64,000 bases of DNA, from the NCBI GenBank assembly GCA_019359725.1, contig JAHHGR010000017.1, positions 633-64,632 on the forward strand, written 5' to 3'. The stretch is from Aphanocapsa lilacina HA4352-LM1. GTDB lineage: Bacteria; Cyanobacteriota; Cyanobacteriia; Gloeobacterales; Gloeobacteraceae. A program made the translations under genes and the position numbers. Under the pieces are notes generated by a model that worked only from the letters and a program-made list of their open reading frames with translations, did no database searches and was not told where the DNA came from. This document shows, piece by piece, positions 7,201 through 61,339 of the stretch (within the stretch, counting starts at the first letter, position 1; every line of letters begins with the position of its first letter).

Positions 7201-7793
7201 CCTTGCAGTTCCCGCGCCAGCCATGCCTTTGCGAGCATCCAGCGCCGTTTTACCGTCGCAACGGAGATGCCCAATTCCTGGGCAACCATTTCGATGGTGA
7301 ACCCTCCGAAGTAGCGCAGCTCAACGATCCGGCCCAGCTGCTCGTCGAGCGCCGTTAACCTTTGCAACGCCGCGTGCAGGGCGAGCAACTCCTCGTCGTT
7401 TTCGAGCGCCATCAACCCCTCCTCAGAACCGTTCGCAGCGATTTCTCCCGCTGTATCCAGGGGAATATGCACAAAACCGCCTCCGCGTTTTTCCGCCTGG
7501 CGTTTGCGGGCGTAGTCCACCAGGGCGTGGCGCATGGCCCGGGCCGCGACCGCATAAAAATGGTGGCGACCCTGCCAGGCCGGAACGCGCTTTTGATCGA
7601 CCAGCCTCAGGTACGCTTCATTGAGCAGGGCAGTCGCCTGCAAGGTGAGATGGGTCCGTCTGTAGCTTGTGCAGCGATTGGCGAGTACATGCAATTGCTC
7701 GTAAATGAGCGGATAGAGCCTGTCGAGGGCTTGCCGGTCGCCGCTGCTCCACTGCTGAAGTAGCAGGGTCACATCGTTGTCGCAAGGTTTCAC
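7197..7793 (-). CDS. ECF sigma factor, ECF43-like (TIGR02999-type)
   Basis: DVTLLLQQWSSGDRQALDRLYPLIYEQL, TLQATALLNEAYLRL, ALVDYARKRQAEKRGGG, IVELRYFGG, TVKRRWMLAKAWL; GTG start assumed at 7793. Confidence 0.88.
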   Translation of the reverse strand: MKPCDNDVTLLLQQWSSGDRQALDRLYPLIYEQLHVLANRCTSYRRTHLTLQATALLNEAYLRLVDQKRVPAWQGRHHFYAVAARAMRHALVDYARKRQAEKRGGGFVHIPLDTAGEIAANGSEEGLMALENDEELLALHAALQRLTALDEQLGRIVELRYFGGFTIEMVAQELGISVATVKRRWMLAKAWLARELQG

Positions 7794-8085: not shown

Positions 8086-9894
8086 CTAGCGGTTTGAGGA
8101 GATGTTGATCGATTCGTTGATGTTGCGGATGGTGCGCTGGCCTTCGCGTTCGAGGGCCACCTCGATCGTGCCGCCCGGGACGTTGATGTTTTTGCCGATC
8201 TGCACGGTCGCTTCGTAGAAACCGGGGGTGATTTCCTTCATGGTGATCGGGCCGGTATAACCCAGGATACGGAAGGTGGCCTTGCCGCCGCCGTCGCCTT
8301 CGAGCGAGACGGTGAGCACATCGCCGCTGTGGAGCACCCGGTTGGCCGGATCGACGCTCACCTGGCGGATGCGCAGGCGATTGGGACGCTGCACCGGGTC
8401 GAAGGGCGAAGGCGGACTGAACAAATCGCCGCTGCTGCGGCGGGTGATGATGGGCGGGTTGCCGTAGCCAGGGGTGCCGAAGGTACTGGAGCCGGGAGGG
8501 CGGGTGCCGTAGGGACTGGTACCAAAGCTGCCGCCCAGGCTGCCGGGACGGGTGCCGTAGGGACTGGTACCAAAGCTGCCGCCCAGGCTGCCGGGACGGG
8601 TGCCGTAGGGGTTCGGATTGCCGTAGCCGTAGCCGCCGCGGGTGCTGTAGCTGTCGAAACTGCCCGAGACACCCGCACTGTTGTTCGGGGGCGGGACGGC
8701 CGGGAAGCCGTCGTCGTCGTAGGCGGAGCGGGGGCTGCTGCTTGGGGCGGCGGCTGAACGCGAGCCGTAGCTGTTGTCGAAGCCGCCGGCCCGCCGCCCC
8801 GACTGCGAGGGCATCGGAGGCAGCTCGTCGTCGGGGTAGGTATCCCTCGGAGCCTGGGCGGTGCGGGTGTTGCCCACCTCCAGCTTGGCGATGCGCTGGG
8901 CCTGGGTGGCGAGGCCACCCCGGTCGAGGCGTACCGTTACCGTCGGGTTGATAATGGCGTCTTTGTCGGTGACTTTGTAAGTACCGGTGTATTCACCGGG
9001 GCTACTCTCCTGCATCGCCACGTCGGTTGCCAGATCCGCCAGATCGAACTTGGCCTGGGCGCCGGGGGTGCCCTTGGCCGTCACCGTCACCGCCTGGCCG
9101 GGGGTGACCTTGGCGTCCGGCTGCACCTGAATCGAGGCGATCGTCGGCCGCTCGATCTTGATCTGGGCGACCGGGGCCTCCACCGCCGCCAGCTTCTTCT
9201 GGTAGACGAGCGACTGGTGCATCAGCACCGCCACTTCGCCGCGGGTGAGGACATCGTCGGGGCCGAGCTTTTTGGCGTCGGGCACGTTGACCACCAATCC
9301 CGCCTGGGCGGCGGCGGCGATAAATTCGCGCCCCGCCTGCGGTACAGAAGCGGTGTCGCTGTACAGACCCAGCCAGCTTTCGACCGCCGGTTTAGAAGGT
9401 GCAGCCAGCTTGAGGGCGCGCCCGAAGATGGCGAGTGCCTCCAGGCGGGTGAGATCGCCCTGGGGCTTAAACAGACTGCCCGGATAGGTGGACATCACCC
9501 CGGCCTGCAGTAGCGCCTGGACGTTGAGATAATCGGGGCTATTTTTGGGCACATCTTTGATCGGTGTGTCCTTCTTCTTGGCGACGGGCCGGATTTCAAA
9601 AACGTTCGTAAGCCAACGGGCCAGCTCGATGCGGCTCATCGTCGCATCGAGGGATTCCCCCAGGATGATGAGATCGCTTTTGCTCTGCACCGCCTCGGCG
9701 TAAGGCTTCGTCCAGCGCACGTCCAGCTCGTCGCTCGCAGGGGCCGATGGGGCCGGAGCGAGGGAGGGCAACTCCGGCGGCGGGGCGCTGTCGGTTTTTG
9801 GGGAGGTCCCAGGAGGCTCCTGGGCAAGCGCCTGGGAGATGCTCCCGCACAACCCCAGCCACAAACCCACATGTACAACCCAGTTGCGTTTCAT
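8086..9894 (-). CDS. Secreted S-layer homology (SLH) domain protein with two Ig-like domains and a low-complexity linker
   Basis: Signal peptide; SLH motifs IKDVPKNSPDY...LTRLEAL and YSDTASVP...LTRGEVA; two similar beta-rich domains separated by a G/S/P/Y/R-rich region. Confidence 0.8.
   Translation of the reverse strand: MKRNWVVHVGLWLGLCGSISQALAQEPPGTSPKTDSAPPPELPSLAPAPSAPASDELDVRWTKPYAEAVQSKSDLIILGESLDATMSRIELARWLTNVFEIRPVAKKKDTPIKDVPKNSPDYLNVQALLQAGVMSTYPGSLFKPQGDLTRLEALAIFGRALKLAAPSKPAVESWLGLYSDTASVPQAGREFIAAAAQAGLVVNVPDAKKLGPDDVLTRGEVAVLMHQSLVYQKKLAAVEAPVAQIKIERPTIASIQVQPDAKVTPGQAVTVTAKGTPGAQAKFDLADLATDVAMQESSPGEYTGTYKVTDKDAIINPTVTVRLDRGGLATQAQRIAKLEVGNTRTAQAPRDTYPDDELPPMPSQSGRRAGGFDNSYGSRSAAAPSSSPRSAYDDDGFPAVPPPNNSAGVSGSFDSYSTRGGYGYGNPNPYGTRPGSLGGSFGTSPYGTRPGSLGGSFGTSPYGTRPPGSSTFGTPGYGNPPIITRRSSGDLFSPPSPFDPVQRPNRLRIRQVSVDPANRVLHSGDVLTVSLEGDGGGKATFRILGYTGPITMKEITPGFYEATVQIGKNINVPGGTIEVALEREGQRTIRNINESINISSNR
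8501..8610. repeat. 48-bp tandem repeat (2 full copies plus 14 bp) encoding GTRPGSLGGSFGTSPY
   Basis: CGGGTGCCGTAGGGACTGGTACCAAAGCTGCCGCCCAGGCTGCCGGGA at 8501 and 8549, with a partial copy at 8597. Confidence 0.95.
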
Positions 9895-10868: not shown

Positions 10869-12116
10869 ATGTACGGACGGATTGCACTGATCTCTGTAAA
10901 TGGTGATCCCTCGGCGGTCATCGGCGCAGAGGAAGCAGGTGGACAGAATGTCTATGTTCGCGAAGTCGGCAAGCATCTGGCAAGCCTCGGTTATCAGATA
11001 GACATGTTCACGCGTCGCATCGATCCGTCGCAAGCCGAGGTGGTCGAAGAAGCCCCCAACTGCCGCACAATCCGCCTTGCGGCCGGGCCGCTGGAGTTTG
11101 TGAAGCGCGACAATTTGCACAGCTATATTCCCGATTTTGTCGACAGCTTGACGGCCTACGCCCGGCGCCACTCCTACGACGCGGTACATACCCACTACTG
11201 GCACTCGGGCATGGTGGGTCTGGCTTCGCGCGAGAAGCTGGGTATACCCGTGGTGCACACCTATCACTCTTTGGGCGCCATCAAGTATATGAACGTAGCG
11301 GAGATTCCCGCTTCGGCACAGTTGCGCCTGAGTGGCGAGCGCCGCATCCTCGAGCAGGCGGACCGTATCGTGGCCACCAGCCCCCAGGAAGCGGAGCATA
11401 TGCGCACCTATGTCTCGCGCAAGGGCTCGGTGGATATTATTCCCTGCGGCGTAGATGCCCGTCACTTCATGGGGACCGATCGGGCGGCGGCGCGCCGGGT
11501 GCTCGGCTGGGCCGAACAGGAGAAGGTGGTACTTTATGTGGGCCGCTTCGACAAGCGCAAGGGTATCGAGACCCTAGTGCGCGCAGTAGCACAGATTGAG
11601 GAGCCGGTGCGTCTGGTCATCGGCGGCGGCTATACGCCCGACCGCGGCGACGGTGTAGAGTTCGAGCGCATCCGGGGCATAGTCGAGGAGGTGGGTCTAA
11701 CCAGTCGGACCCAGTTCACGGGCCGGATCGATCAGGCGGATTTGCCCAATTTTTATACAGCGGCGGATGTGTGCGTGGTACCGAGCCACTACGAGCCGTT
11801 CGGCCTGGTGGCCATCGAAGCGATGGCCTGCGGAACGCCGGTGATCGCCAGTGCGGTGGGTGGCCTGTGCTACAGCGTCGTCAACGACGAGACGGGTTTG
11901 CTGGTACCGCCGCGCGATGCCGAAGGCTTTGCCGGGGCCATTCGCCGGGTGATCACCGACGCCGGGTTGCGCGAGCGATTCTCAGCCGCCGGTATTCGCC
12001 GCATCCACGACCATTTCACCTGGGCCGGGGTAAGCCGCCAACTGGGACGCCTCTACGCGAATCTGGCCGCCCGTCAGACTTCCCAGTGCCTGTCAAAGCA
12101 GCAGTCGGTGGCCTAG
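10869..12116 (+). CDS. sps: GT4 glycosyltransferase, single-domain sucrose-phosphate synthase type
   Basis: EAGGQNVYV, HTHYWHSG, HTYHSLG, YVGRFDKRKG, PSHYEPFGLVAIEAMACG; lies 3 bp upstream of an SPP gene. Confidence 0.75.
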   Translation: MYGRIALISVNGDPSAVIGAEEAGGQNVYVREVGKHLASLGYQIDMFTRRIDPSQAEVVEEAPNCRTIRLAAGPLEFVKRDNLHSYIPDFVDSLTAYARRHSYDAVHTHYWHSGMVGLASREKLGIPVVHTYHSLGAIKYMNVAEIPASAQLRLSGERRILEQADRIVATSPQEAEHMRTYVSRKGSVDIIPCGVDARHFMGTDRAAARRVLGWAEQEKVVLYVGRFDKRKGIETLVRAVAQIEEPVRLVIGGGYTPDRGDGVEFERIRGIVEEVGLTSRTQFTGRIDQADLPNFYTAADVCVVPSHYEPFGLVAIEAMACGTPVIASAVGGLCYSVVNDETGLLVPPRDAEGFAGAIRRVITDAGLRERFSAAGIRRIHDHFTWAGVSRQLGRLYANLAARQTSQCLSKQQSVA

Positions 12117-18389: not shown

Positions 18390-18585
18390 TGCGTTTTGTG
18401 AAGTAATGGTTGTAGCCTTCAGTGTAACGCAGCTTGCGGGCGAGGCCCGAGCGGGCCTCGCCTTGACAGGCCTGCGAGCGCGTGGGTTACGATTGGCGAA
18501 GCGTTCGGGCGTCGCCAAGCGGTAAGGCACCTGGTTTTGGTCCAGGCACTCGGTGGTTCGAATCCATCCGCCCGAGGATAGTGGT

Positions 18586-22375: not shown

Positions 22376-23749
22376 CTAAGACAAAAACCGCCGCCGGAAT
22401 TGGGCCGCTTTGGTCGGATCACCAATCTGGTCTGCCAGCCTGTCGACTAGATCCGCCTGGGTGAGGTGGCTCGATTGGGAAGCCACCTGCACCAGCCGCG
22501 CGGCAATCGGTCCTACAAAGTGCGCCAGCTCCCGCTCGCAGCGCTGCACAAAATTGGGATCGAGCACCGGAGATGGGGCAGCGCCGGGGTTGGTGGCCGG
22601 TGGCCGGGTCGGTGTGGCCCCCAGCAGATCCATCGCCTTTTGGCTAAAACTTGGCCGCTGCTTTTCGGGCAATTGCTCCGCAAGCCTTTCCACCAGATCC
22701 TGGGCGTCCTGGGCCAGCGCCTGGGCCTGGCGCACCAGAATCGGGGCGATCGGTCCAATCAGCGAGGCAAGGTGCTTCTGCAGTCGGTCGAGCTGGTTTG
22801 CGTTCAACTCCAACGGAAAAGCCAGGCGAGTCTCGTCGCGGCGCAAGGGCCGGGAAGGCTCGCCCTGGACGGCGCTGCGCAACAGTTGGCCGATTTCGCG
22901 CATGCCTGCCGGACGGGAGCGGGGATCTTTTTGCAGACAGGCGAGTACGACCCGCTCGACAGCGGGCGGTACGGCCCGGTAGGGACTGGCCTGGGCTATT
23001 GAGCGGGGGAGCCGTTCGGTATGGGCGTGATACCAGCAGTTGAAGCTCTGGTCGGCGAGGACGAACGGGTCGGTGCCGGAAAATAGCTCGTACAGAATCA
23101 TTCCGAGGCCGTAGACGTCGGACAGGACTGTCACCGCCTCTCCGCGCAACTGCTCCGGTGCCGAGTAGCGCGGTGTACCCAGATAGCCGTGGGTGAGTTG
23201 CCTCCGCTCGCCATAGACCATCGCCTCGCTGACCAGTTTGGCAATCCCAAAATCGAGAATCTTCACCCGCCAGCCCGACTGGGGGTCGCCGGAAAGATAG
23301 ATATTGCCCGGTTTGAGGTCGCGGTGGACGACTCCCAGATCGTGGGCAACCTGCAAACCTTCGCAAAGCTGCACCCCAATCGCCACCACCTGCTCGAGCG
23401 GCAAAGGCGAACCGGCCAGGTCGTCGAGGGCGTGCCCCTTGAGAAACTCCATCGTGAAGTACGGTAAATCGAGATCGTCGAGGATGCCGTAGTCGTAGAT
23501 CTGCACAATGTAGGGGCTACGCTCGCTCAGGCGGGCGCAGATGGCCGCCTCGTTGCGGAAGCGCTGGCGCAGGTCGTTGGTGTTGAGGCTCTGGGAAAGC
23601 AGCTTCACCGCCGCCGTCAGATCGTCGATCTCGACGTGAACGGCTCTGTAGACCGAACCCATCCCGCCGACGCCGATCTTCTCCACCAGGCGGTAGCGGC
23701 CGACCGTGCGGCCCAACAGAGGATCTCGCCGTCCTTGGAAGCTGGCCAC
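22376..23749 (-). CDS. Soluble Ser/Thr protein kinase with a duplicated C-terminal helical module
   Basis: IGVGGMGSVY, HRDLKPGN, DFGIAK, GTPRYSAPEQ; two copies of the LA-x-x-(I/V)GPIA module. GTG start assumed at 23749. Confidence 0.88.
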   Translation of the reverse strand: MASFQGRRDPLLGRTVGRYRLVEKIGVGGMGSVYRAVHVEIDDLTAAVKLLSQSLNTNDLRQRFRNEAAICARLSERSPYIVQIYDYGILDDLDLPYFTMEFLKGHALDDLAGSPLPLEQVVAIGVQLCEGLQVAHDLGVVHRDLKPGNIYLSGDPQSGWRVKILDFGIAKLVSEAMVYGERRQLTHGYLGTPRYSAPEQLRGEAVTVLSDVYGLGMILYELFSGTDPFVLADQSFNCWYHAHTERLPRSIAQASPYRAVPPAVERVVLACLQKDPRSRPAGMREIGQLLRSAVQGEPSRPLRRDETRLAFPLELNANQLDRLQKHLASLIGPIAPILVRQAQALAQDAQDLVERLAEQLPEKQRPSFSQKAMDLLGATPTRPPATNPGAAPSPVLDPNFVQRCERELAHFVGPIAARLVQVASQSSHLTQADLVDRLADQIGDPTKAAQFRRRFLS

Positions 23750-23867
23750 CGTCGGCAGGGAAATTTCGCTCAAACTATGACACAACTGCCAGGGTTTGTC
23801 CAACGGCGGCTTGCGGGCGCTTGCAAAGCTAAAGTACCCCGAGCGAAGCCTAAATTTGCGGTCGGGT

Positions 23868-25772
23868 CTAAGCTTCTTTGCGCAAGTCCGACACATCCCA
23901 GGCGCGCTCGACGTCGCGGGTCAGTTCGCGATCCTCCGCCTGCAGTACCCGCTCCAGTTCCTCGGCCTGCCGGCGCGAGCGGACCGCCACGAGCCTTTCT
24001 TCTTCCTCCAGTTCGGCCATCTCGTAGAGCATCTTTTCGTCGTTGGCTTTGAAGGTGCTTGCGATCCGTTGCGCCCGGTAGGAGCGCTCGCCCAACAATT
24101 TCAAAGCCCCGACGCCCATCTCCACGGCGGAGCCGAAGGTCTCGCGCTCGACTACGTCGACTTTGCGGCGAATCAATTCGTAGGCGTGGCGGCGGTCGAT
24201 CGCCCGAGCCAGGATCTTCAGGTGGGGAAAGTGCTTGCGCACCAGGTCGACCATCTCCACCGACTTTTCGCGATCGTCGATGGCGATGACCAGCAGCTTC
24301 GCCTGCTCCGCCCCGGCCGCGTGCAGCAGGTCGATGCGGGTGGCGTCGCCGTAGAAGAGCTTGAAGCCGAAGCGGCGCAGCATGTCTATCTGGCTCGGAT
24401 CGACTTCGAGGATAGTCACTTTGCAGCCGTTGGCCATCAACATGCGGCCGACAATCTGTCCGAAGCGGCCGAACCCGGCAATGATCACCGGGTTTTCGTT
24501 CTCGTCGATGGCGTCCGGTTCGCGCTCGGGCTCCGTCGAAATAAAGCGCGGCTGCACCAACCGGTCGTGCAGGATCATCAACAGCGGCGTCATCACCATC
24601 GACAGCGCCACCACCGCCACGAGCGGTTCGGCGACTTCCGGGGTGAGCACCCGGTTCTGGGTGGCAAAAGAAAAGAGCACGAAGGCAAATTCACCCCCCT
24701 GCGCCAGGGCAAAGGCGAACAAAAAACTCTGGCTCAGCTGCAAACGAAAGAACTGGCCAAGGGCCAACAGTACCGAAAACTTGACGACCGCGAGGCCGAT
24801 GACCAGACCAAGGATGAGCAGCGGCTGTTCGAAGAGCAAGTTGAAGTTGATGCTCGCCCCCACCGCGATAAAGAACAGGCCAAGCAGCAGACCCTTAAAT
24901 GGTTCGATGTCGGTTTCCAGTTCGTGGCGGTACTCGTTTTCGGCGAGCACCACCCCGGCCACAAAGGTACCGAGGGCGGGCGAGAGACCGACCGCCTGCA
25001 CCGCGAGGGCCACACCCACCACCAGCAGGAGCGCCGTGGCGGTAAAAATTTCGCGCAGGCGGGTCGAAGCGATGAAGCGAAAGACCGGCTGCATCAAAAA
25101 TCTACCCACCAGCACGATGCCGCCCAACAAAGCAATCACCAACAGCGCCTGCTGCCAGGCGGGCAGACTGGCTGTGGGGCCGGAGGCGCCCTCGGCGGCG
25201 ACCAAAATCAGATCCCCTGCGGCGGCCTGCAGGCTTACCTCGGTGGCCTTGCCGGTGGCCAGCAGCGGCAGCAGGGCCAGGATCGGGATCACGGCAATGT
25301 CTTGAAACAGCAGGACCGAAAAGGCCGACTGTCCAGCCTCGCTCTTCATTACCCCTTTTTCGTTGAGCGTCTGCAGTACAATGGCCGTCGAGGACATCGC
25401 CAGGATAAGGCCGACCGCCAGGGACATTTGCCAGGACAAGCCGACCGCCAGGGCAATCGCCCCCGCCACCAGAGCCGTCCCGATCACCTGCAGCCCGCCC
25501 ATGCCCAGGATCGGCACCCGCAAACGCCACAGCAGTGAGGGCTGCAACTCCAGACCGACCAGAAAGAGCATCATCACGACGCCGAATTCGGCGAAGTGCA
25601 TGACGTCTTCTCCCTCCTGGCCGACCAGGCCAAGGACGAACGGGCCGATAACCACCCCGGCGAGCAGGTAGCCCAACACCGAGCCGAGCCCGAGGCGCTT
25701 GGCAATCGGCACCGAGATCACGGCGGCAGCCAGATAAATGAATGCTTGAAAGAAGAAGTTTTCGTTAGCCAT
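23868..25772 (-). CDS. kefC: CPA2 family K+/H+ antiporter, glutathione-regulated KefC/KefB type
   Basis: HFAEFGVVMMLFLVGLEL, LLFQDIAV, ELETDIEPFKGLLLGLFF, RCK motif IAGFGRFG. Confidence 0.88.
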   Translation of the reverse strand: MANENFFFQAFIYLAAAVISVPIAKRLGLGSVLGYLLAGVVIGPFVLGLVGQEGEDVMHFAEFGVVMMLFLVGLELQPSLLWRLRVPILGMGGLQVIGTALVAGAIALAVGLSWQMSLAVGLILAMSSTAIVLQTLNEKGVMKSEAGQSAFSVLLFQDIAVIPILALLPLLATGKATEVSLQAAAGDLILVAAEGASGPTASLPAWQQALLVIALLGGIVLVGRFLMQPVFRFIASTRLREIFTATALLLVVGVALAVQAVGLSPALGTFVAGVVLAENEYRHELETDIEPFKGLLLGLFFIAVGASINFNLLFEQPLLILGLVIGLAVVKFSVLLALGQFFRLQLSQSFLFAFALAQGGEFAFVLFSFATQNRVLTPEVAEPLVAVVALSMVMTPLLMILHDRLVQPRFISTEPEREPDAIDENENPVIIAGFGRFGQIVGRMLMANGCKVTILEVDPSQIDMLRRFGFKLFYGDATRIDLLHAAGAEQAKLLVIAIDDREKSVEMVDLVRKHFPHLKILARAIDRRHAYELIRRKVDVVERETFGSAVEMGVGALKLLGERSYRAQRIASTFKANDEKMLYEMAELEEEERLVAVRSRRQAEELERVLQAEDRELTRDVERAWDVSDLRKEA

Positions 25773-38259: not shown

Positions 38260-40449
38260 GTGACAAGCCATCCTCTTTACGTGGCCTTTATCTGGCACCA
38301 GCACCAACCGCTCTATAGAAGTGCCCTCTCGGGCCGCTACCTGATGCCGTGGGTGCGGCTGCACGGCACCAAAGATTATCTGGACCTGGCGCTGATTTTG
38401 GAGCGCTATCCGAAGCTGCACCAGACCTTTAACCTGGTGCCGTCGCTGTTGATGCAGATCGAGGACTATATCGCCGGAACCGCCATGGATCCGTGGCTGG
38501 AGGTGCTGCTCAAGCCGGTGGAGCAACTCACCCCCAACGACCGACGCTTCATCATCGAGCGGTTCTTCGACGCCAACTGGGAAAATCTCATCCACCCGTA
38601 TCCGCGCTATAGCCAACTGTTGGAGATCCGCCAGCAGCGCGGCATCAACTGGTGCCTGGAGCACTGGCAGGCGGCGGAGTACGAGGATTTGCTCGCCTGG
38701 CATAACCTCTGCTGGTTCGATCCGATCTTTCAAGAGGAAGACCCGCAGGTGCGCTCCTGGATAGCCCAGGATAGCGGCTTTACCCTGGCTGATCGCGAAG
38801 CCATCTACGCCAAACAGCGCCAGATCATGAGCCGCATCGTCTCCCAGCACAAATTGATGCAGGAGCGCGGGCAAATCGAGGTAACCACCACCCCCTACAC
38901 CCACCCGATCTTGCCCTTGCTCGCCAACACCGACAGCGGCCGGGTGGCCAGGCCCCAGATGGCGCTGCCGCGCTCGCGCTTCCATTGGCCCCAGGATGTG
39001 CGCACACAGCTTCTTAAAGGCAAAGAAAACTACCAGACCCGCTTCGATTGCGACCCGCGCGGTTTGTGGCCTTCGGAAGAGTCGGTGAGCCCGGCGGTCT
39101 TGCCTGAGGTGGTGAAGGCGGGTTTCAAGTGGCTGGTCTCCGACGAGGGCGTGCTCGGCTGTTCGATCGACCACTTTTTCAACCGCGACAACTACGGCCA
39201 TGTCCAGGCGCCGGACTTGCTCTACCGGCCCTATCTGGTGGAGACGCCCGCCGGGCCGGTCTCGATGGTCTTTCGCGACAACCGCCTGTCGGATTTGATC
39301 GGCTTCGAGTACGCCTCGCGCCCAGCTGAGGAGGCTGCCCGCGACTTTATCGAACAACTGGAGGCCATCGGCCGTCTCATCAAGGCCCAGAAAGCCCCCG
39401 GGCCGCACCTGGTGACGGTGGCCCTCGACGGCGAGAACTGCTGGGAGTACTACAACCAGGACGGCAAACCCTTCCTAGAAGCGCTCTACTCCCGCCTCTC
39501 GCGCCACCGCTCGATCAAACTCGTCACCGTCAGCGAATACCTCGACCGCTTCGGTGCGGAGCGTTCGATCCCGCTCGAGCGCCTCCACAGCGGCTCGTGG
39601 ATCAACGCCGATTTCACCACCTGGATAGGCGATCCGGTCAAAAACCGCGCCTGGGAACTGCTCGCCCAGGCCCGCCAGGTGATCGAAGTCCACCCGCGCG
39701 CCACCGACGCCTCCTGGGAGGCGCTTTGGGCGGCGGAGGGGTCCGACTGGTTCTGGTGGTTCGGCTACGGCCACAGCTCCGCCCAGGACGCTTTGTTCGA
39801 TCAACTCTTTCGCGAGCATCTGCAGGCGCTGTACGTCTCGCTCGGCGAAGCGATCCCCAAGGCCCTCCGTTCGCCCCTGGAGCGCCACGATTCGCCCGGA
39901 AGCCGAGTGCCCAGGGCCTTCATCCAACCGCAGATTACCGGCTACGGCTTCGAGCAGGAGTGGAGCGAGGCCGGTTGTTACGAGGTGGGCGGGGCGCGCG
40001 GTACGATGCACCGGTCGGCCAGTGTCCAGCGCGTTTGGTACGGCACCGATCACCGCCATTTTTATCTGCGCCTCGACTTCGGCGGCGAGCGGCCCCAGGC
40101 GGTGCACCTCTACTGGTACTATCCCCACCAGGTCCATCACAACAGTGCCGTGCCGCTCAGGGAACGCCCGGCGCAGGGAACGGCCAGCTACCAGTTTCGC
40201 CACGGCCTGGAGTTGCACCTGCAGCACCGCCACTGCCAATTGAAGGCGGCGGGCGAGTATGACCGTTGGCACGATGTGCCCACCTCCACCCGCTTCGCTG
40301 TGCAGGAGTGCCTGGAATTGGCCGTGCCCTGGGAAGATCTGGAGATGAGTTCGGGGATTCAGCCGCAATTTATCGTCGTGCTTGCCCGCGACGGCCGTTT
40401 TGAGACGGCGATTCCCGAAGGGGAAACCCTCGAAGTGCAGGTGCCATAG
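38260..40449 (+). CDS. Glycoside hydrolase family 57 (amylopullulanase-like)
   Basis: WHQHQP, PWVRLH, PYTHPILPL, GLWPSEE, VALDGEN, AEGSDWFWW. Confidence 0.92.
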   Translation: MTSHPLYVAFIWHQHQPLYRSALSGRYLMPWVRLHGTKDYLDLALILERYPKLHQTFNLVPSLLMQIEDYIAGTAMDPWLEVLLKPVEQLTPNDRRFIIERFFDANWENLIHPYPRYSQLLEIRQQRGINWCLEHWQAAEYEDLLAWHNLCWFDPIFQEEDPQVRSWIAQDSGFTLADREAIYAKQRQIMSRIVSQHKLMQERGQIEVTTTPYTHPILPLLANTDSGRVARPQMALPRSRFHWPQDVRTQLLKGKENYQTRFDCDPRGLWPSEESVSPAVLPEVVKAGFKWLVSDEGVLGCSIDHFFNRDNYGHVQAPDLLYRPYLVETPAGPVSMVFRDNRLSDLIGFEYASRPAEEAARDFIEQLEAIGRLIKAQKAPGPHLVTVALDGENCWEYYNQDGKPFLEALYSRLSRHRSIKLVTVSEYLDRFGAERSIPLERLHSGSWINADFTTWIGDPVKNRAWELLAQARQVIEVHPRATDASWEALWAAEGSDWFWWFGYGHSSAQDALFDQLFREHLQALYVSLGEAIPKALRSPLERHDSPGSRVPRAFIQPQITGYGFEQEWSEAGCYEVGGARGTMHRSASVQRVWYGTDHRHFYLRLDFGGERPQAVHLYWYYPHQVHHNSAVPLRERPAQGTASYQFRHGLELHLQHRHCQLKAAGEYDRWHDVPTSTRFAVQECLELAVPWEDLEMSSGIQPQFIVVLARDGRFETAIPEGETLEVQVP

Positions 40450-45724: not shown

Positions 45725-45806
45725 GGGTCGGTGTCCGAGTGGTTAAAGGAGACGGACTGTAAATCCGTTGGCTCTGCCTACGTTGGTTCAAATCCAACCC
45801 GGCCCA
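45725..45806 (+). tRNA. trnY: tRNA-Tyr(GTA)
   Basis: GGGTCGG...GACGGACT-GTA-AATCCGT, long variable arm, GGTTCAAATCC, CCGGCCCA; CCA not encoded. Confidence 0.97.
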
Positions 45807-45817
45807 CATTTATCCAC

Positions 45818-45889
45818 GCTGCTATGGCGCAGTGGTAGCGCATCCCCTTGGTAAGGGGAAGGTCGCGAGTTCGAATCTCGCTAGCAGCT
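45818..45889 (+). tRNA. trnT: tRNA-Thr(GGT)
   Basis: GCTGCTA...TCCCCTT-GGT-AAGGGGA...GAGTTCGAATCTC-GCTAGCAGCT. Confidence 0.97.
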
Positions 45890-51074: not shown

Positions 51075-51590
51075 ATGAAACTGTCTTTGGCCTTGAGTAC
51101 GTGCGCCCTACTGCTGTTGTCCGCCGCTCCGTTGAGCGCCATTGTCGCCAACGGGGAGACTTTCTTCAGCGTCGTGCCCAAGCTCACCCGCGCCATGACG
51201 ACCAACGTCAGCGCCTCGTACAACACCGCGACCTACACGTTCGACGTCACTGTCCCCTCCGACAGCGGCGAACCCCTCGGTGGTCTAGTCGTGGGCATTC
51301 CCAGGCGCGTGCGCGTTCCTGACCCGAATCAGATCCGGGTGTTGAGCGGGGGCACTTCGGTACCGCTGCAAGTCGAGAGCCTGAGCGGCCGGCGCCTGCG
51401 ATTGAACCTGCAGAAGCCGGTGAGCCCGGGTCAGGCGGTTACTATCGAACTTTCGACGATGCGCAACCCTCGCGGCGGCGGCACGTACTTGTTTGAAATC
51501 AACGCCCAACCCGTCGGCACCAACCCGTTTACCTACTTTCTCGGCTTTGGCCGGTTGGAGTTCTTTGCTGGCGGTAGCGGCAGCAGCTAG
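51075..51590 (+). CDS. DUF2808 domain secreted protein
   Basis: GETFFSVVPKL, ATYTFDV, PVSPGQAVTIEL, RNPRGGGTYLF, YFLGFGRL. Confidence 0.82.
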   Translation: MKLSLALSTCALLLLSAAPLSAIVANGETFFSVVPKLTRAMTTNVSASYNTATYTFDVTVPSDSGEPLGGLVVGIPRRVRVPDPNQIRVLSGGTSVPLQVESLSGRRLRLNLQKPVSPGQAVTIELSTMRNPRGGGTYLFEINAQPVGTNPFTYFLGFGRLEFFAGGSGSS

Positions 51591-52556: not shown

Positions 52557-53459
52557 TCAGCCCACCAACTCCGGCAAGGTGAAGCGCCGCAGCGAGCACT
52601 GCTGCTGTCGGTGGCTGAGGGACGCTGTTAAATATTCAAGCTCCCACGGTTTGAAGCTGCCGTTGCAGATATGGGAATTGAGTGGCTGGCAAGAGGTGTA
52701 GGTATAAAAAATCGCCAGGCGCTCGCGTTGGGTTGGCATCTTCCCACGGTGAAAGATGGTTGCCGTGTCGGCGAGAACCACGGTGCCGGCGCGGCCCAGA
52801 CATGTCTGCCAGAAGCTTTCAGGCACAAGGGACGCCACAGTCTTGAGGGGGATCCTGCCGTGTCGATAGCTGAGTTTATCGCGCAGGTAGGCGCTCAGGC
52901 GTTTGGAGATGTACTGAAAAGGGCCGGAGTGGGCGTCCACGTCGCTCAAGTAGACGATCACTTTGACCATGCGCAGATCCTCGTGGTCGGTATGCCAGTC
53001 GCGCGTTTTGACCTGGGCGCTATGCAGGGTCGAGCGCCTGAGGGCCGTTCCCATATACCGCGCAGGCAAGCCAAGATAAGTTTCGACAATATTGAGCAAA
53101 GATTCCTCCAGGCCCCACCGATAGAGCACCGGTGAATGCAAGATCGCTGCGTCGTCAAGCTTGAGATCTTGCTTGGCGGTGATCTCGGGCTGGGTGTCGT
53201 TAAGGGTGGGAATCCATCGCCGGGCGGCTTGCAGCATGGCCGCTGTCGAAGCAAGTGCAAGGTCCTCGAGGTGGGTCACATAGACACCTTCGCGCTCCAG
53301 GGCGTAGACGCAGTCGCGCTGCCTTTCAGACAATTGCGGCAGTTCCTTGCGGTGGATCTCCACCGCCAGGGCCTGGGCAAACTGAGAGGATAGACGAGCT
53401 GACGGTAAAGTATTAATTTCTCGTATAATCAGGTCGCGGGTGCGTCTTATCAGTGCCAT
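52557..53459 (-). CDS. 2OG-Fe(II) dioxygenase / PhyH-like protein
   Basis: WHTD, VKVIVYLSDV, GPFQYI, AGTVVLADT, FHRG. Confidence 0.75.
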   Translation of the reverse strand: MALIRRTRDLIIREINTLPSARLSSQFAQALAVEIHRKELPQLSERQRDCVYALEREGVYVTHLEDLALASTAAMLQAARRWIPTLNDTQPEITAKQDLKLDDAAILHSPVLYRWGLEESLLNIVETYLGLPARYMGTALRRSTLHSAQVKTRDWHTDHEDLRMVKVIVYLSDVDAHSGPFQYISKRLSAYLRDKLSYRHGRIPLKTVASLVPESFWQTCLGRAGTVVLADTATIFHRGKMPTQRERLAIFYTYTSCQPLNSHICNGSFKPWELEYLTASLSHRQQQCSLRRFTLPELVG

Positions 53460-56932: not shown

Positions 56933-57278
56933 ATTGCCGAAGCAATATAAACACGCGGTTCTGCGGCTAAGCTCCAGTCCCAGGGCTTTTTGGCCTCTGC
57001 CGCGATTCTGGTGTTGAATTAGCTCCGCTGGCTCAGGACTCTCCATTGCATAAGTTCCTCGGGTCGAACATATACATTGGTAACCTTCTGTGGATCGATC
57101 CATAGTGCGCGCGGGATTTTCCAGACCCTTAACCAACGCATAATCTGAACCAGGGCTTGTGACCCGCGAGCCGCCCAAATGGTCTTTCTTATTGAAAAAT
57201 GCACAGCTAATGATTGATAGTCTTTTGAGCGAAAGGAAAGTCCGATGTTCCTTTCGATTAACCCTTCCGGAGCCGACT

Positions 57279-59402
57279 ATGGGTGCGCCACCAAACGAGT
57301 ATTCCTTCGACTACGACCAGATGCAGCGGGCCGCCAGCCATTGGCGCGAGCACGAAGAAAAACGCGAATACGACACCAAACTCCTCGGCGAAGGCCGTTA
57401 CGACGCAGTGGAATCGAAAGAACGGCTTGCCAAGCGGGTCAACCGCCTTTTGAACATAGTCAAACAGCGCCTCCCCGCCAAAGAAGAATCCTTGCCCGGG
57501 TTCCTCGCAGAAGCGCTGGAACACAAACATTTCGAGCCCGACGAAGTCGACAACGCCTTGGTGGAACGGGTGATCGGCGAGACGCGCGACTTTTTGTCGT
57601 TGGAGTTCGTCGAAAAAGCGTTGCGTGTGAACCGGCCTGTCGGCCGGATTGTCACACGGTTGGGCGGTGGTCGTGTGAGCTACGGAACCGGTTTTCTGGT
57701 TTCGCCGAAGCTGCTGCTGACCAACCAGCACGTCTTGAAGGCCCCCAAACGTGCCCTAGACAGCTTGGTCGAATTCGACTACCAAAGCGACGGGTACGGC
57801 CGACCGATTTCCGTAGAAAAGTTCGAACTGGATCCGGGTGTGTTTTTCCTCAACGACGAAGACCTTGACTATGCTCTGGTCGCGGTCAAACCGATTTCCA
57901 AAACAGGTCGTCCCCTATCCGATTACGGCTGGTGCCCGCTCATCAAAGAGGAAGGGAAAATCCGGCTTCACGAAGCGATCAATATCATCCAGCACCCCCG
58001 CGGGGAGATGAAGCAGATCGTCATCCGCTCCAATAAGCTGTTGGCTCTGCTGGACCTGTTCGCCCACTACGAGGCGGACACCGAACCAGGTTCTTCCGGT
58101 TCACCGGTATTCAACGACCAATGGGAAGTGATTGCCTTGCACCATATGGGCGTGCCGAAAACGAACGCTCGGGGCGAATTTCTAACCGAAGACGGCAGTG
58201 TCTGGAAAAAAGGCGACGACCCCACTTGTTTGGCCTGGGTGGCCAACGAGGGTGTGCGCGTCTCGCGCCTGGTCGACGCGATATCCAAGGCACGGGTGCA
58301 GCCGCACGAGAAGGAACTGCTGGCGGAGCTATTGGAAGCCAACGAACCGGAGCCGTCGGAGATCGGGTTTTCGGTGAAACAGAAATTCGATCGCACCGCT
58401 GCAAAGCCAAGCGTCACCCTCACCGTCCCGCTGCGCATCACGCTGAGCTTTGGGCAACCGATCGAAGATGAGGAGCCAGAAGATCAAGGCGGTCTGGAGG
58501 CGGTCGAACCCGAAGGAGACTACGACCGCCGCCCGGGATACGATCCGGACTTTTTGGGCTTCTCAGTGCCCTTGCCCAAGCTCCCCAATGCGTTGCGCTC
58601 AAAAGCCTTCGAACTGCCGGGGGCGAACGGCACAGGCAGATTCGAGCTGAAGTACCACCACTACAGCGTTCTGTTCAACCGCGAACGGCGTTTGGCGTTC
58701 GCGGCGGCGGTGAACTACGATGCCGGGGCACCCTACAAGCACAGTCGCGAAGGCAATGACAGGTGGTTCTTTGACCCCCGGGTGGACAAAAAAGAGCAGG
58801 CGGGCGAAAAATACTACAAGGACAATCCCCTAGATCGCGGTCACCTGGTGCGGCGGGCGGACGCCGCCTGGGGCGGCACCCCGAAAGAGGCAAAGCTCGC
58901 CAACGACGACACGTTCCATTTCACGAACTGCTCGCCCCAGCACGAGATCTTTAACCAATCGACCAAAGCAGACAAACAGGGCGTCAAGCTTTGGGGCAAC
59001 CTAGAGAACCATATCGCCGCTCAAGGGAGCGCCGACGGCAAAAAGCTGTCCATCTCCAACGGGCCGATATTTCGGCCCGACGATCGCGTTTATCGCGAGG
59101 ACTTTCTGCTGCCCAAGGCGTATTGGAAAGTGGTCGCCTTCGAGACCGACGGAGGCCGACCGAGGGCACTCGCCTTCGTCCTCAGCCAGGAGGGATTGCT
59201 CAAGAACCTACCCGAGGAGGAGTTTGAGGAAGGCCCTTACAAAACCTTCCAGGTCAAAATCCGGGATCTCGAAGCGATAACAAAGCTCGATTTCGGCATC
59301 CTACGCTCCCACGACCCGCTTGAGGCGGATCAAAACGAAAGTTTCTTTGTGGAGGGTACCGATGCGGTACTTCTCGAGGGCCTGGGCGATATCGTTCTGT
59401 AG
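57279..59402 (+). CDS. Fusion of a trypsin-like serine protease and a DNA/RNA non-specific (NucA/EndoG) endonuclease
   Basis: GTGFLV, LTNQHV, LDYAL, DTEPGSSGSPV; then YHHYSV, LDRGHLV, FTNCSPQ, FNQ, WGNLE, PKAYWKVV. Confidence 0.88.
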   Translation: MGAPPNEYSFDYDQMQRAASHWREHEEKREYDTKLLGEGRYDAVESKERLAKRVNRLLNIVKQRLPAKEESLPGFLAEALEHKHFEPDEVDNALVERVIGETRDFLSLEFVEKALRVNRPVGRIVTRLGGGRVSYGTGFLVSPKLLLTNQHVLKAPKRALDSLVEFDYQSDGYGRPISVEKFELDPGVFFLNDEDLDYALVAVKPISKTGRPLSDYGWCPLIKEEGKIRLHEAINIIQHPRGEMKQIVIRSNKLLALLDLFAHYEADTEPGSSGSPVFNDQWEVIALHHMGVPKTNARGEFLTEDGSVWKKGDDPTCLAWVANEGVRVSRLVDAISKARVQPHEKELLAELLEANEPEPSEIGFSVKQKFDRTAAKPSVTLTVPLRITLSFGQPIEDEEPEDQGGLEAVEPEGDYDRRPGYDPDFLGFSVPLPKLPNALRSKAFELPGANGTGRFELKYHHYSVLFNRERRLAFAAAVNYDAGAPYKHSREGNDRWFFDPRVDKKEQAGEKYYKDNPLDRGHLVRRADAAWGGTPKEAKLANDDTFHFTNCSPQHEIFNQSTKADKQGVKLWGNLENHIAAQGSADGKKLSISNGPIFRPDDRVYREDFLLPKAYWKVVAFETDGGRPRALAFVLSQEGLLKNLPEEEFEEGPYKTFQVKIRDLEAITKLDFGILRSHDPLEADQNESFFVEGTDAVLLEGLGDIVL

Positions 59403-60140
59403 TCGGTCCGCCTCCAACAACTGGATCACCTGTTTGAAAGCAGTCCTACGACATCTAAGATCGACGTGGGCGGAACCGCTCCACAGCCGAAACGCAGCTA
59501 ACCTCGATTTTTTCGCGGACGGCCCCGCGGGCGTTTGACGGAGGGGGGCCGTGCACATCGCAGGACCGTTCCTCCTTTGGACGTGTACTTTAGCTCCCCA
59601 GACTCGGTGTATCGCAAGTGCTGGTATTCCTCCGATGAATCGACGGCACGGTCGAGCCGGGCATCGGCGTCGAGCAGTGCTTCCAACGGCATCGAGGACA
59701 TCGTCGTCGCATTGGTCGGTGCCGTGTTCGAGCGCGTCGTGCATCAGTGGGCTGCTCAGGTTCTCCTGGCACTCCCATTCGGTGAGACGCACCTTTTCCG
59801 GCGGGTCGTCGACGGGAAACCGTGCCCGCTGCCGATGCGCCCTTAGCAAGCTGCGGTAATTCGCTCTCATTTTGCGGTTGCGATCAACGTGCCCAGTTCA
59901 GACCCATCGCTGGAGCACCGGTCCAGTACTGTCCTGTGTCCACAAGTTCAAAACCCTGAAAGTCGTATTCCTTAGAAGATGGCTTGAGAATTTAGGCAAT
60001 AAAAAAATATATTAATTGACTCTGGCCCGACGCTCCAGTCGCTAGATCCGGCCTGGTCTTTCCTGGGATGGATGCCATTGGTGTCCCTGGGGCGCGAGCT
60101 TGAACTGGTGTGTTCAGTCGATGGCGGGATTGCCATGGAA

Positions 60141-60704: not shown

Positions 60705-60832
60705 ACTTCTTAGCTCGGCAAGGGGAGTTTGCCCACCTGGAAGCTACGTGGTGTATTGGCCTGTCCTTCTGTGGGTAGAGGCGCCCGCGGCGGTCGGGGT
60801 CTATTGTGCGTACAAAGACGAGGAGAGAACCC

Positions 60833-61339
60833 ATGAGTGCCAAACCGCCGGAAAATCCCGAAAAGTACACCCCGGATCTCAACAAGATTGACCTCGACCT
60901 CAGCGGCGTCGAAACCGCCCAGCCGAACGTATCCGCTGAGATCATGGCCCGCGAGGAGGCAAAAGAAGAAAAAGTGATTGCCAAGTACGCCGATACCCAG
61001 GCTCCGGATCTCGAATTTTTGCCCCTCGATTTTCTAAGCGACCAAGAGGACGAGGACGAGCGCGATTTTCGGGTCAAGTTCCGTCAGGTGGTGATCGCCG
61101 GTTACGCCGAAGGTAAAAGCCTCGATGAAATTTACACTGCCGTGGACGCTATCGAGCGCTCAAAGGCGGTAGATACCCAGAACCTGCCTCTGCACGACCT
61201 GGCAAAGCGCATCTACCAGAGCGCCGCTGAGCGCAGCAGCGAAGTCACCCGCTGCTATATCTGCGGCAAGTACAATCCCCGCTACGAAGACAGCTGCCCG
61301 ACTTTCTGCCCCTACAGCGAGAGCATCGGGCAAAGTTAA
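60833..61339 (+). CDS. Acidic hypothetical protein with a C-terminal 4-Cys motif
   Basis: AGGAG RBS; ends RCYICGKYNPRYEDSCPTFCPY. Confidence 0.75.
   Translation: MSAKPPENPEKYTPDLNKIDLDLSGVETAQPNVSAEIMAREEAKEEKVIAKYADTQAPDLEFLPLDFLSDQEDEDERDFRVKFRQVVIAGYAEGKSLDEIYTAVDAIERSKAVDTQNLPLHDLAKRIYQSAAERSSEVTRCYICGKYNPRYEDSCPTFCPYSESIGQS

Follow-up and report, generated by a model that had tools for sequence, protein, structure and literature searches.

The stretch of DNA analysed here, referred to below as the window, comprises 64,000 nucleotides (positions 633 to 64,632 of contig JAHHGR010000017.1) from the cyanobacterium Aphanocapsa lilacina HA4352-LM1. Near its 3' end lies a gene for a 707-amino-acid (aa) protein, in which a trypsin-like serine protease and a NucA/EndoG-type nuclease are joined in one polypeptide. 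Our preferred reading, held tentatively and put a little short of an even chance, is that this protein is a degradative effector of the 'NucA-trypsin' kind, located in the cytoplasm, latent and controlled by proteolysis. The features of the locus are as follows.

57192-57221, plus strand: promoter-like site TTGAAA-18-GATAGT, 58 nucleotides (nt) 5' of the start codon, from a consensus scan only
57269-57272, plus strand: Shine-Dalgarno sequence GGAG, 6 nt 5' of the ATG, from direct reading of the sequence
57279-59402, plus strand: coding sequence of the protease-nuclease fusion, 707 aa, stop codon included
57279-57548, plus strand: family-specific helical N-terminal domain (N-domain), aa 1-90, with helices at 12-24, 26-37, 47-64 and 74-81
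57549-58334, plus strand: S1 serine protease module, aa 91-352, with conserved 'ERVIGETRDF' lead-in helices
57729-57731, 57867-57869 and 58095-58097, plus strand: protease triad H151, D197 and S273, in the Trypsin_2 match, invariant in relatives
58335-58508, plus strand: flexible linker, aa 353-410, consisting of two variable Pro/Ala/Ser-rich spacers that flank a hairpin
58410-58454, plus strand: 15-aa hairpin motif S-V-T-L-T-[IV]-P-L-x-I-T-V-S-L-G, aa 378-392
58509-59303, plus strand: NucA/EndoG-type non-specific nuclease, aa 411-675, from the Endonuclease_NS match and fold matches
58833-58844, 58926-58928, 58953-58955 and 59004-59006, plus strand: nuclease residues DRGH, N550, N559 and E576, invariant in relatives (R520 of DRGH in at least 90%)
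58959-58985, plus strand: family-specific insertion of 9 aa (aa 561-569) next to the active site, with the Mg-binding Asn on one side and W572/E576 on the other
59304-59399, plus strand: acidic C-terminal tail, aa 676-707 (32 aa), ending in [DS]-[IVM]-[VI]-[LFY]-COOH

The open reading frame (ORF) could be extended to 57159-59402 on the plus strand by using an upstream GTG. The ATG at 57279 is nevertheless the likely start, because GGAG lies 6 nt upstream of it, a promoter-like site precedes it, and its Met is shared by 110 of 120 homologues, with a conserved 'MAAPxNxxAFD' N-terminus. The promoter-like site falls within the GTG-extended ORF, which again favours the ATG. The 707-aa ORF proposed in the initial annotation of this DNA, made from the sequence alone, therefore stands.

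The protein was compared with an alignment of 34 full-length relatives, and with a larger set of the 120 best database matches. Pfam profiles detected Trypsin_2 (aa 136-287, E 4.2e-21) and Endonuclease_NS (aa 446-672, E 7.4e-43), the two matches that the initial annotation had anticipated. Its description of a complete trypsin-like triad (His at 57729, Ser at 58095) and an intact NucA/EndoG nuclease with DRGH at 58833-58844 proved correct in both residues and coordinates. H151, D197, S273, D519, G521, H522, N550, N559 and E576 are invariant in the 34 relatives, with R520 present in at least 90%. The nuclease catalytic residues are kept in 120/120 of the larger set, and nuclease catalysis is therefore under selection. 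As judged from this conservation, both enzymes are intact and under purifying selection. Alignment to Anabaena NucA revealed the 9-aa insertion, which is gap-free in the 120 relatives and is modelled with low confidence (predicted local distance difference test, pLDDT, 54-60).

An AlphaFold2 (AF2) model built from the 34-sequence alignment (pLDDT 83, predicted template modelling score, pTM, 0.54) begins with helices at aa 12-118, which are followed by the protease (aa 121-352), a linker modelled with low confidence (aa 362-407) and the nuclease (aa 410-700). The closest folds to the protease are the human FAM111A serine protease domain, followed by the staphylococcal Esp, V8 and Spl proteases; the fold matches of the nuclease are EndoG, Serratia nuclease and Anabaena NucA. 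A search of PADLOC-DB v2 gave no full-length match to any catalogued defence protein, and weak matches to the protease domain only (RT-Protease_XI, 2.2e-7; LmuA, 1.1e-6; PDC-S45, 5e-5).

No signal peptide or transmembrane (TM) segment was found in any of the 34 relatives, in which the N-termini are hydrophilic and the maximum Kyte-Doolittle hydropathy over 19 residues is at most 1.68, so that the absence of both first reported for the window protein holds for these relatives as well. The plasmid versions from Bacillus, Rhizobium and Mesorhizobium likewise contain neither, and a Pfam scan of the window protein showed no trafficking domain. The fusion protein is accordingly predicted to be cytoplasmic, without an export signal. 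The contig of one relative (P0074) also encodes (L040 17912-18205) a 992-aa surface or secreted-looking protein with LTD, Big_2, PKD and Endonuclease_NS domains. In that genome an exported-looking NucA would seem to contrast with the cytoplasmic fusion.

The N-domain is modelled with high confidence at aa 11-60 (pLDDT about 91-94) and lower confidence at aa 61-80 (67-82). When 24 N-terminal segments were compared with Pfam, with matches up to E 10 admitted, nothing consistent and no EAD match emerged, and a Foldseek search of a separate AF2 model of the domain against the Protein Data Bank (PDB) gave a best E of 3.2, with no CARD or Death-like match. A role as a sensor is one option for this domain, among those of a pro-domain, an oligomerisation domain and an adaptor. 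No second copy of the N-domain, as in EAD-type pairing, was found within 10 kb in 37 loci, or in the window.

The linker is predicted to be disordered (pLDDT about 30-47), and its two spacers vary between 13-74 and 17-47 aa among the 120 relatives. Between them, the hairpin has a fixed length, with P384 in 119/120 and G392 in 115/120 relatives. The hairpin is kept in a fusion to PLD (P0258) and a fusion to Endonuclease_1 (L031), and is therefore part of the protease core. It is a candidate cleavage or pseudo-substrate site. The C-terminal tail ends at one column in 108/120 relatives, with a length of 31-37 aa and a median net charge of -6. Related endings (DIRV, DIKI, HIVL) recur in NucA fusions of some divergent subfamilies and are missing from the PLD and Endonuclease_1 fusions that were checked, so the tail appears to belong to the nuclease module, for which it is a candidate in-cis inhibitor. 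The acidic linker of the initial annotation holds for the window protein, in which the second spacer has a net charge of -8, but not as a family trait (median -3); the consistently acidic part is the C-terminal tail.

The 120 best database matches are all full-length with both domains, at 49-61% identity, and those with a taxonomic label belong to Planctomycetota, Acidobacteriota, Bacteroidota, Actinomycetota, Gemmatimonadota and Eisenbacteria. Further full-length relatives, from alphaproteobacteria and with 42-48% identity, came from a genome scan. A sister subfamily, about 37% identical to the window protein, occurs in myxobacteria, Chloroflexota, cyanobacteria, Verrucomicrobiota and one Nitrososphaeraceae archaeon. 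Plasmids that carry family members number 141, and coverage reaches at least 80% in 42 of these; most of those listed are large rhizobial replicons (pNGR234a among them) and megaplasmids of the Bacillus cereus group and Paenibacillus. There was no full-length match among 50,697 phage records. The family is patchy across phyla and plasmid-carried. In two alphaproteobacterial metagenome-assembled genomes the fusion is read as two ORFs (L015 10001-12275, 607 + 183 aa; L018 9403-12926, 817 + 347 aa), which could reflect frameshifts, insertions or mistakes in the assembly.

A profile built on the first 122 residues retrieved only 212 clusters (50% identity) among 1.84 billion representatives, and the domain census covers the 55 long representatives of these. 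Trypsin_2 is present in all 55. Endonuclease_NS is present in 42, Endonuclease_1 in four and PLD in one; one has a subtilase following the nuclease, and an NTPase domain was found in 0/55. Seven of the 55 begin with an additional PGAP1/LCAT-type alpha/beta-hydrolase and are thus hydrolase-protease-nuclease triple fusions, about 1200 aa long. On plasmid pGM3709_07 of Geminocystis sp. NIES-3709 (L045 1468-7431), a core 45% identical to that of the window protein is fused to a GDSL-like hydrolase (sub-threshold in Pfam), and is directly followed by genes for a GH19 enzyme, a TPR protein, an N-acetylmuramoyl-L-alanine amidase and a murein endopeptidase. The arrangement hints that in some hosts the core may control cell-wall lysis. 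In Streptomyces and Yinghuangia (L026, L027, L028, L029 and L032), the core is joined to a C-terminal domain of about 290 aa with 'HLVFLHG ... VSHSLGT ... GSPLG' motifs and no Pfam or PDB sequence match. The HSLG motif suggests that it is an alpha/beta-hydrolase, and it may represent an undescribed hydrolase family.

The N-domain and protease thus form a constant core, which recombines with NucA, Endonuclease I, PLD, lipase-like hydrolases or a subtilase. A constant regulatory core that swaps degradative enzymes is the usual signature of conflict or cell-death effectors, and the modularity seen here is what such an effector would be expected to show.

Clustering of 464 neighbouring ORFs from 34 genomic loci and the window showed no neighbour family common across phyla. 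The only recurring neighbours were due to synteny among close alphaproteobacterial genomes and to a mycobacterial cluster. As candidate partners, the former were rejected as housekeeping synteny (histidine kinase, glutathione S-transferase, fumarase). The window itself is ordinary chromosome, with genes for Mfd, HisD, GH57, an HtrA-type protease and Ser/Thr kinases, and contains no NTPase, STAND, NLR or CARD-protease gene. The initial annotation had described the gene as standing alone, with no NTPase sensor and no NuiA-like inhibitor gene nearby, and this picture held up: no NuiA-like or other recognisable inhibitor or immunity gene was found beside the fusion gene or its relatives, and the flanking ORFs gave no Pfam match to NuiA or to any other family.

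The three Mycobacterium-type loci (fusion gene at L016 9917-11962, L019 4596-6683 and L020 9905-12001) are arranged differently. A gene for a Tle1-like (DUF2235) hydrolase lies upstream of the fusion gene in two of the three, a gene for an 883-aa AAA_16-LuxR STAND-like protein overlaps the fusion stop in two (L019 and L020), and a subtilase gene (about 400-765 aa, depending on the locus) is nearby in all three. These loci look like a multi-gene conflict cluster, unlike the solitary window gene.

A 'NucA-trypsin' conflict system, found mostly in alphaproteobacteria, has been described by computational prediction only (Kaur et al. 2020, eLife, PMC7159879, System 3). It includes single-polypeptide fusions and trypsin-NucA-subtilase forms, and a proteolytic cascade was proposed to deploy the nuclease. 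The window protein, with an intact Endonuclease_NS domain alongside a trypsin-like peptidase within one polypeptide, fits the same proposed logic, and the alphaproteobacterial concentration is paralleled by our full-length relatives in Bradyrhizobium, Rhizobium, Mesorhizobium and Sinorhizobium. The published system differs in its multi-copy operons, TM-fused peptidases and EAD1, STAND and bDLD2 partners, whereas the window gene and its close relatives are solitary, soluble and free of EADs; TM-fused peptidase paralogues, EAD1 proteins and a STAND NTPase with bDLD2 were not found in the window or beside the close relatives. The absence of these optional accessories does not exclude membership, because they were described for subsets of the system only. 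The N-domain, linker hairpin, acidic tail and wider phyletic spread do not feature in the portion of that paper drawn on here.

The only experimentally studied protein with this architecture is LypC from Caulobacter crescentus, the peptidase-linker-endonuclease of the CARD-NLR-like LypABC system (Banks et al. 2026, Nat Microbiol, PMC13236601). By its published description, LypC resembles the window protein in that a trypsin-like peptidase at the N-terminus is connected by a flexible linker to a Serratia/NucA-type endonuclease at the C-terminus, as well as in its size of about 660-700 aa and its location outside defence islands. LypC overproduced together with its partners is toxic (PMC13236601). 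It differs in that its gene shares an operon with those of LypA (CARD-peptidase-ATPase) and LypB (NLR-like), both of which are needed; neither gene type is present in the window. LypC (ACL94044.1) was not among the matches listed for the window protein, nor among those listed for a query with a Caulobacteraceae relative.

In the trypsin-MBL (metallo-beta-lactamase) pairs of Hachiman, AVAST, Lamassu and DRT systems (Tuck et al. 2025, Science, PMC12799240; also PMC12642450), a sensor-fused trypsin-like protease, activated by oligomerisation, unmasks a separately encoded MBL pro-nuclease by cutting after conserved Ile residues (PMC12799240). The combination of a trypsin-like protease with a non-specific DNase is shared with the window protein. 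Cleavage in those pairs occurs in disordered segments, and here a conserved Ile/Leu-rich motif lies in a disordered linker. HamM-type disordered insertions block the nuclease site, and the window protein has its low-confidence 9-aa insertion beside the active site in addition to the linker hairpin. In those pairs, however, the nuclease has an MBL fold and its own gene, and a sensor (HamA, Avs or LmuA) forms part of the protease polypeptide, whereas the window nuclease is of the beta-beta-alpha-Me NucA type and fused in cis, and no sensor is recognisable. The fold and motifs of the window nuclease (DRGH, metal-binding Asn, W..LE) are those of Anabaena NucA, which is paired with the inhibitor NuiA, of Serratia nuclease, and of mitochondrial EndoG, which is paired with EndoGI. 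In these enzymes, which are exported or confined to a compartment, control is by a separate inhibitor protein, while the window nuclease has no signal peptide or inhibitor gene, and carries the 9-aa insertion and acidic tail that are absent from them.

For the preferred reading of a proteolysis-controlled latent effector, we infer a course of events that runs from nuclease latency through triggering and cleavage to the fate of the cell. The nuclease would be held harmless in cis, with the acidic tail, the active-site insertion and tethering to the protease as candidate means. A trigger would turn the protease on, most likely through self-association mediated by the N-domain, as in FAM111A, which is activated by dimerisation, and the Hachiman protease, which is activated by oligomerisation. 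Once active, the protease would cleave the flexible linker, with the hairpin or its immediate surroundings as the prime candidate site, and might attack other cell proteins as well. The released nuclease would degrade nucleic acids, leading to growth arrest or death of the infected or stressed cell.

This reading is favoured by the two intact domains, the missing export signal, the lack of a conserved neighbour or inhibitor and of a STAND, NLR or CARD-protease gene in the window, the constant core with swapped partners, the disordered linker with its hairpin, and the patchy, plasmid-carried family. The fold likeness to FAM111A and the weak likeness to defence-associated trypsin domains (RT-Protease_XI, LmuA, PDC-S45) point in the same direction. 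Precedents are the logic outlined by Kaur et al. (PMC7159879), the unmasking of the MBL pro-nuclease by trypsin (PMC12799240) and the need of LypC for its peptidase Ser (PMC13236601).

Several observations weigh against it. In LypC, the S296A mutation abolishes gene-transfer-agent lysis and nuclease-site mutations do not, and LypA and LypB are required (PMC13236601). The N-domain of the window protein has no recognisable fold. The pTM of the AF2 model leaves the arrangement of the domains uncertain. The sequence was present in one DNA run ('algae metagenome') and in zero RNA runs. Self-cleavage, nuclease latency and toxicity are hypothetical, and the gated-effector reading as a whole is plausible but unproven. 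The 12 annotated neighbourhoods are varied and mostly housekeeping, and the association of the family with defence islands is weak. The expectation that homologues would lie near defence genes was borne out only occasionally, by PLDc_2 and Cas3 genes at 3-5 kb in Paludisphaera and toxin-antitoxin genes on two rhizobial plasmids, amid mostly housekeeping surroundings. A stricter version of the preferred reading is that the protein is a self-contained suicide or immune module, in which the N-domain senses the trigger and self-associates, the hairpin is self-cut and the tail-inhibited NucA is freed, with no NTPase sensor, second messenger or partner. We regard this version as doubtful.

The opposite view, that the protein is the effector arm of a sensor encoded elsewhere (CARD-NLR or STAND, like LypABC) and that the N-domain is a docking adaptor, is unlikely. 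LypC works only with LypA and LypB, as noted above, and three-gene CARD-NLR operons often have effectors fused to trypsin-like proteases (PMC10312443). The mycobacterial relatives lie directly 5' of the AAA_16-LuxR STAND-like gene and near Tle1-like and S8 genes, and a Crocosphaera relative of the protease carries EAD8. Yet no partner is conserved across phyla in the examined loci, the N-domain has neither a CARD or Death-like fold match nor an EAD Pfam match, its second copy is missing from within 10 kb of every locus and from the window, and none of the 55 long representatives has an NTPase domain. Less likely again is that the protease is the real output, cleaving cell proteins or activating lytic enzymes, and that the nuclease serves as an accessory binding or sensing module or secondary effector rather than a released zymogen. 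The LypC mutants would fit such a division of labour, since H471A and N505A leave lysis intact and deletion of the endonuclease domain destabilises the protein (PMC13236601), and so would the peptidoglycan-hydrolase operon that follows the Geminocystis core and the constancy of the protease core in the family. Against a merely accessory nuclease stand the catalytic residues kept in every one of the 120 relatives, and the nature of the domains that replace NucA, all of which are degradative enzymes and not binding modules.

It is improbable that the protein acts on nucleoprotein in a housekeeping or stress capacity, such as the removal of DNA-protein crosslinks or nucleoid turnover, as a FAM111A-like protease joined to a nuclease. 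The FAM111A domain is the best structural match of the protease, and one relative adjoins an Lhr helicase gene; but a NucA nuclease, being non-specific, is poorly suited to repair, its place can be taken by lipase-like, PLD and GDSL hydrolases, the family is patchy and plasmid-carried, and no repair genes are conserved nearby in the 34 loci and the window. Slightly more improbable still is export of the protein, whether to scavenge as a nuclease/protease or to act as an inter-bacterial toxin that a secretion system delivers. In favour are the secretion of classical NucA-type and Serratia nucleases, the setting of the Bacillus plasmid copy amid extracellular cell-wall protein genes, and a type I secretion locus about 3 kb from the Rhizobium gallicum copy. 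These points are countered by the lack of signal peptides and TM segments throughout the relatives and plasmid versions, of a trafficking domain by Pfam and of an adjacent immunity gene, and by a distribution over many bacterial phyla and one archaeon that have no one common secretion system.

The fusion architecture and the idea of proteolytic gating are already published (Kaur et al. 2020), with LypC as a studied architectural relative. What is new here is the constant N-domain-protease core with its census of partner domains, the assignment of the hairpin to the protease and of the acidic tail to the nuclease, and the finding that the gene is solitary and its family broadly spread among phyla. 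These additions make the cis-gating hypothesis directly testable and do not establish it. If the cis-gated model is true, the protein would be the smallest known protease-controlled death effector, with sensor, switch and executioner in one soluble polypeptide, and a convenient system for studying how proteolysis licenses a dangerous nuclease. It would extend the trypsin-MBL and CARD-NLR logic to another nuclease fold and to many soil phyla, and could help to explain why a nuclease is present in LypC-type proteins. Thousands of database entries labelled only 'DNA/RNA non-specific endonuclease' or 'endonuclease G' would also acquire a functional context.

The intergenic DNA on both sides of the gene is AT-richer than its surroundings, as first described (GC 0.497 and 0.575, versus 0.622 for the window). 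The fusion gene has a GC of 0.58 and a GC at third codon positions (GC3) of 0.715, and five of nine neighbours have a GC of 0.64-0.70 and a GC3 of 0.75-0.82. Horizontal acquisition was considered on this basis and is not used as evidence; the lower GC is only a mild signal, because two unannotated neighbours are equally low and the GlgB gene has a GC of 0.60. Two window ORFs, at 52557-53459 (minus strand, 300 aa) and 60806-61339 (plus strand, 177 aa), have coding-like GC3, a GC of 0.58 and 0.56, respectively, and no Pfam match. They may be further acquired genes.

The 670-bp gap 3' of the fusion gene (59403-60071) contains short ORFs only, all without a Pfam match. One of them, on the minus strand at 59498-59701, has a C-terminal AT-hook-like 'RGRPRKNRG'. 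A Logan gene call on the minus strand, at 59301-59558, shares about 100 nt with the fusion gene at its 3' end.

Elsewhere in the window, the three transfer RNA genes, tRNA-Gln(ttg) at 18504-18577 and the adjacent tRNA-Tyr(gta) and tRNA-Thr(ggt) at 45725-45807 and 45818-45889, were the only Rfam families above threshold. The Ser/Thr protein kinase genes lie at 4498-7224 (minus strand, with TPR repeats) and 22376-23896 (minus strand). A gene for an SLH-domain protein is at 8086-9894 (minus strand), the GH57 gene at 38260-40449, and a DUF2808 gene at about 51075-51590 (L035 3797-4312). As a set, the kinase, SLH, GH57 and DUF2808 genes point to a cyanobacterial host. A GT4 glycosyltransferase encoded at 10869-12116 (plus strand) matches the Pfam family GT4-conflict (PF20706, E 2.9e-24), and matches generic GT families more strongly.

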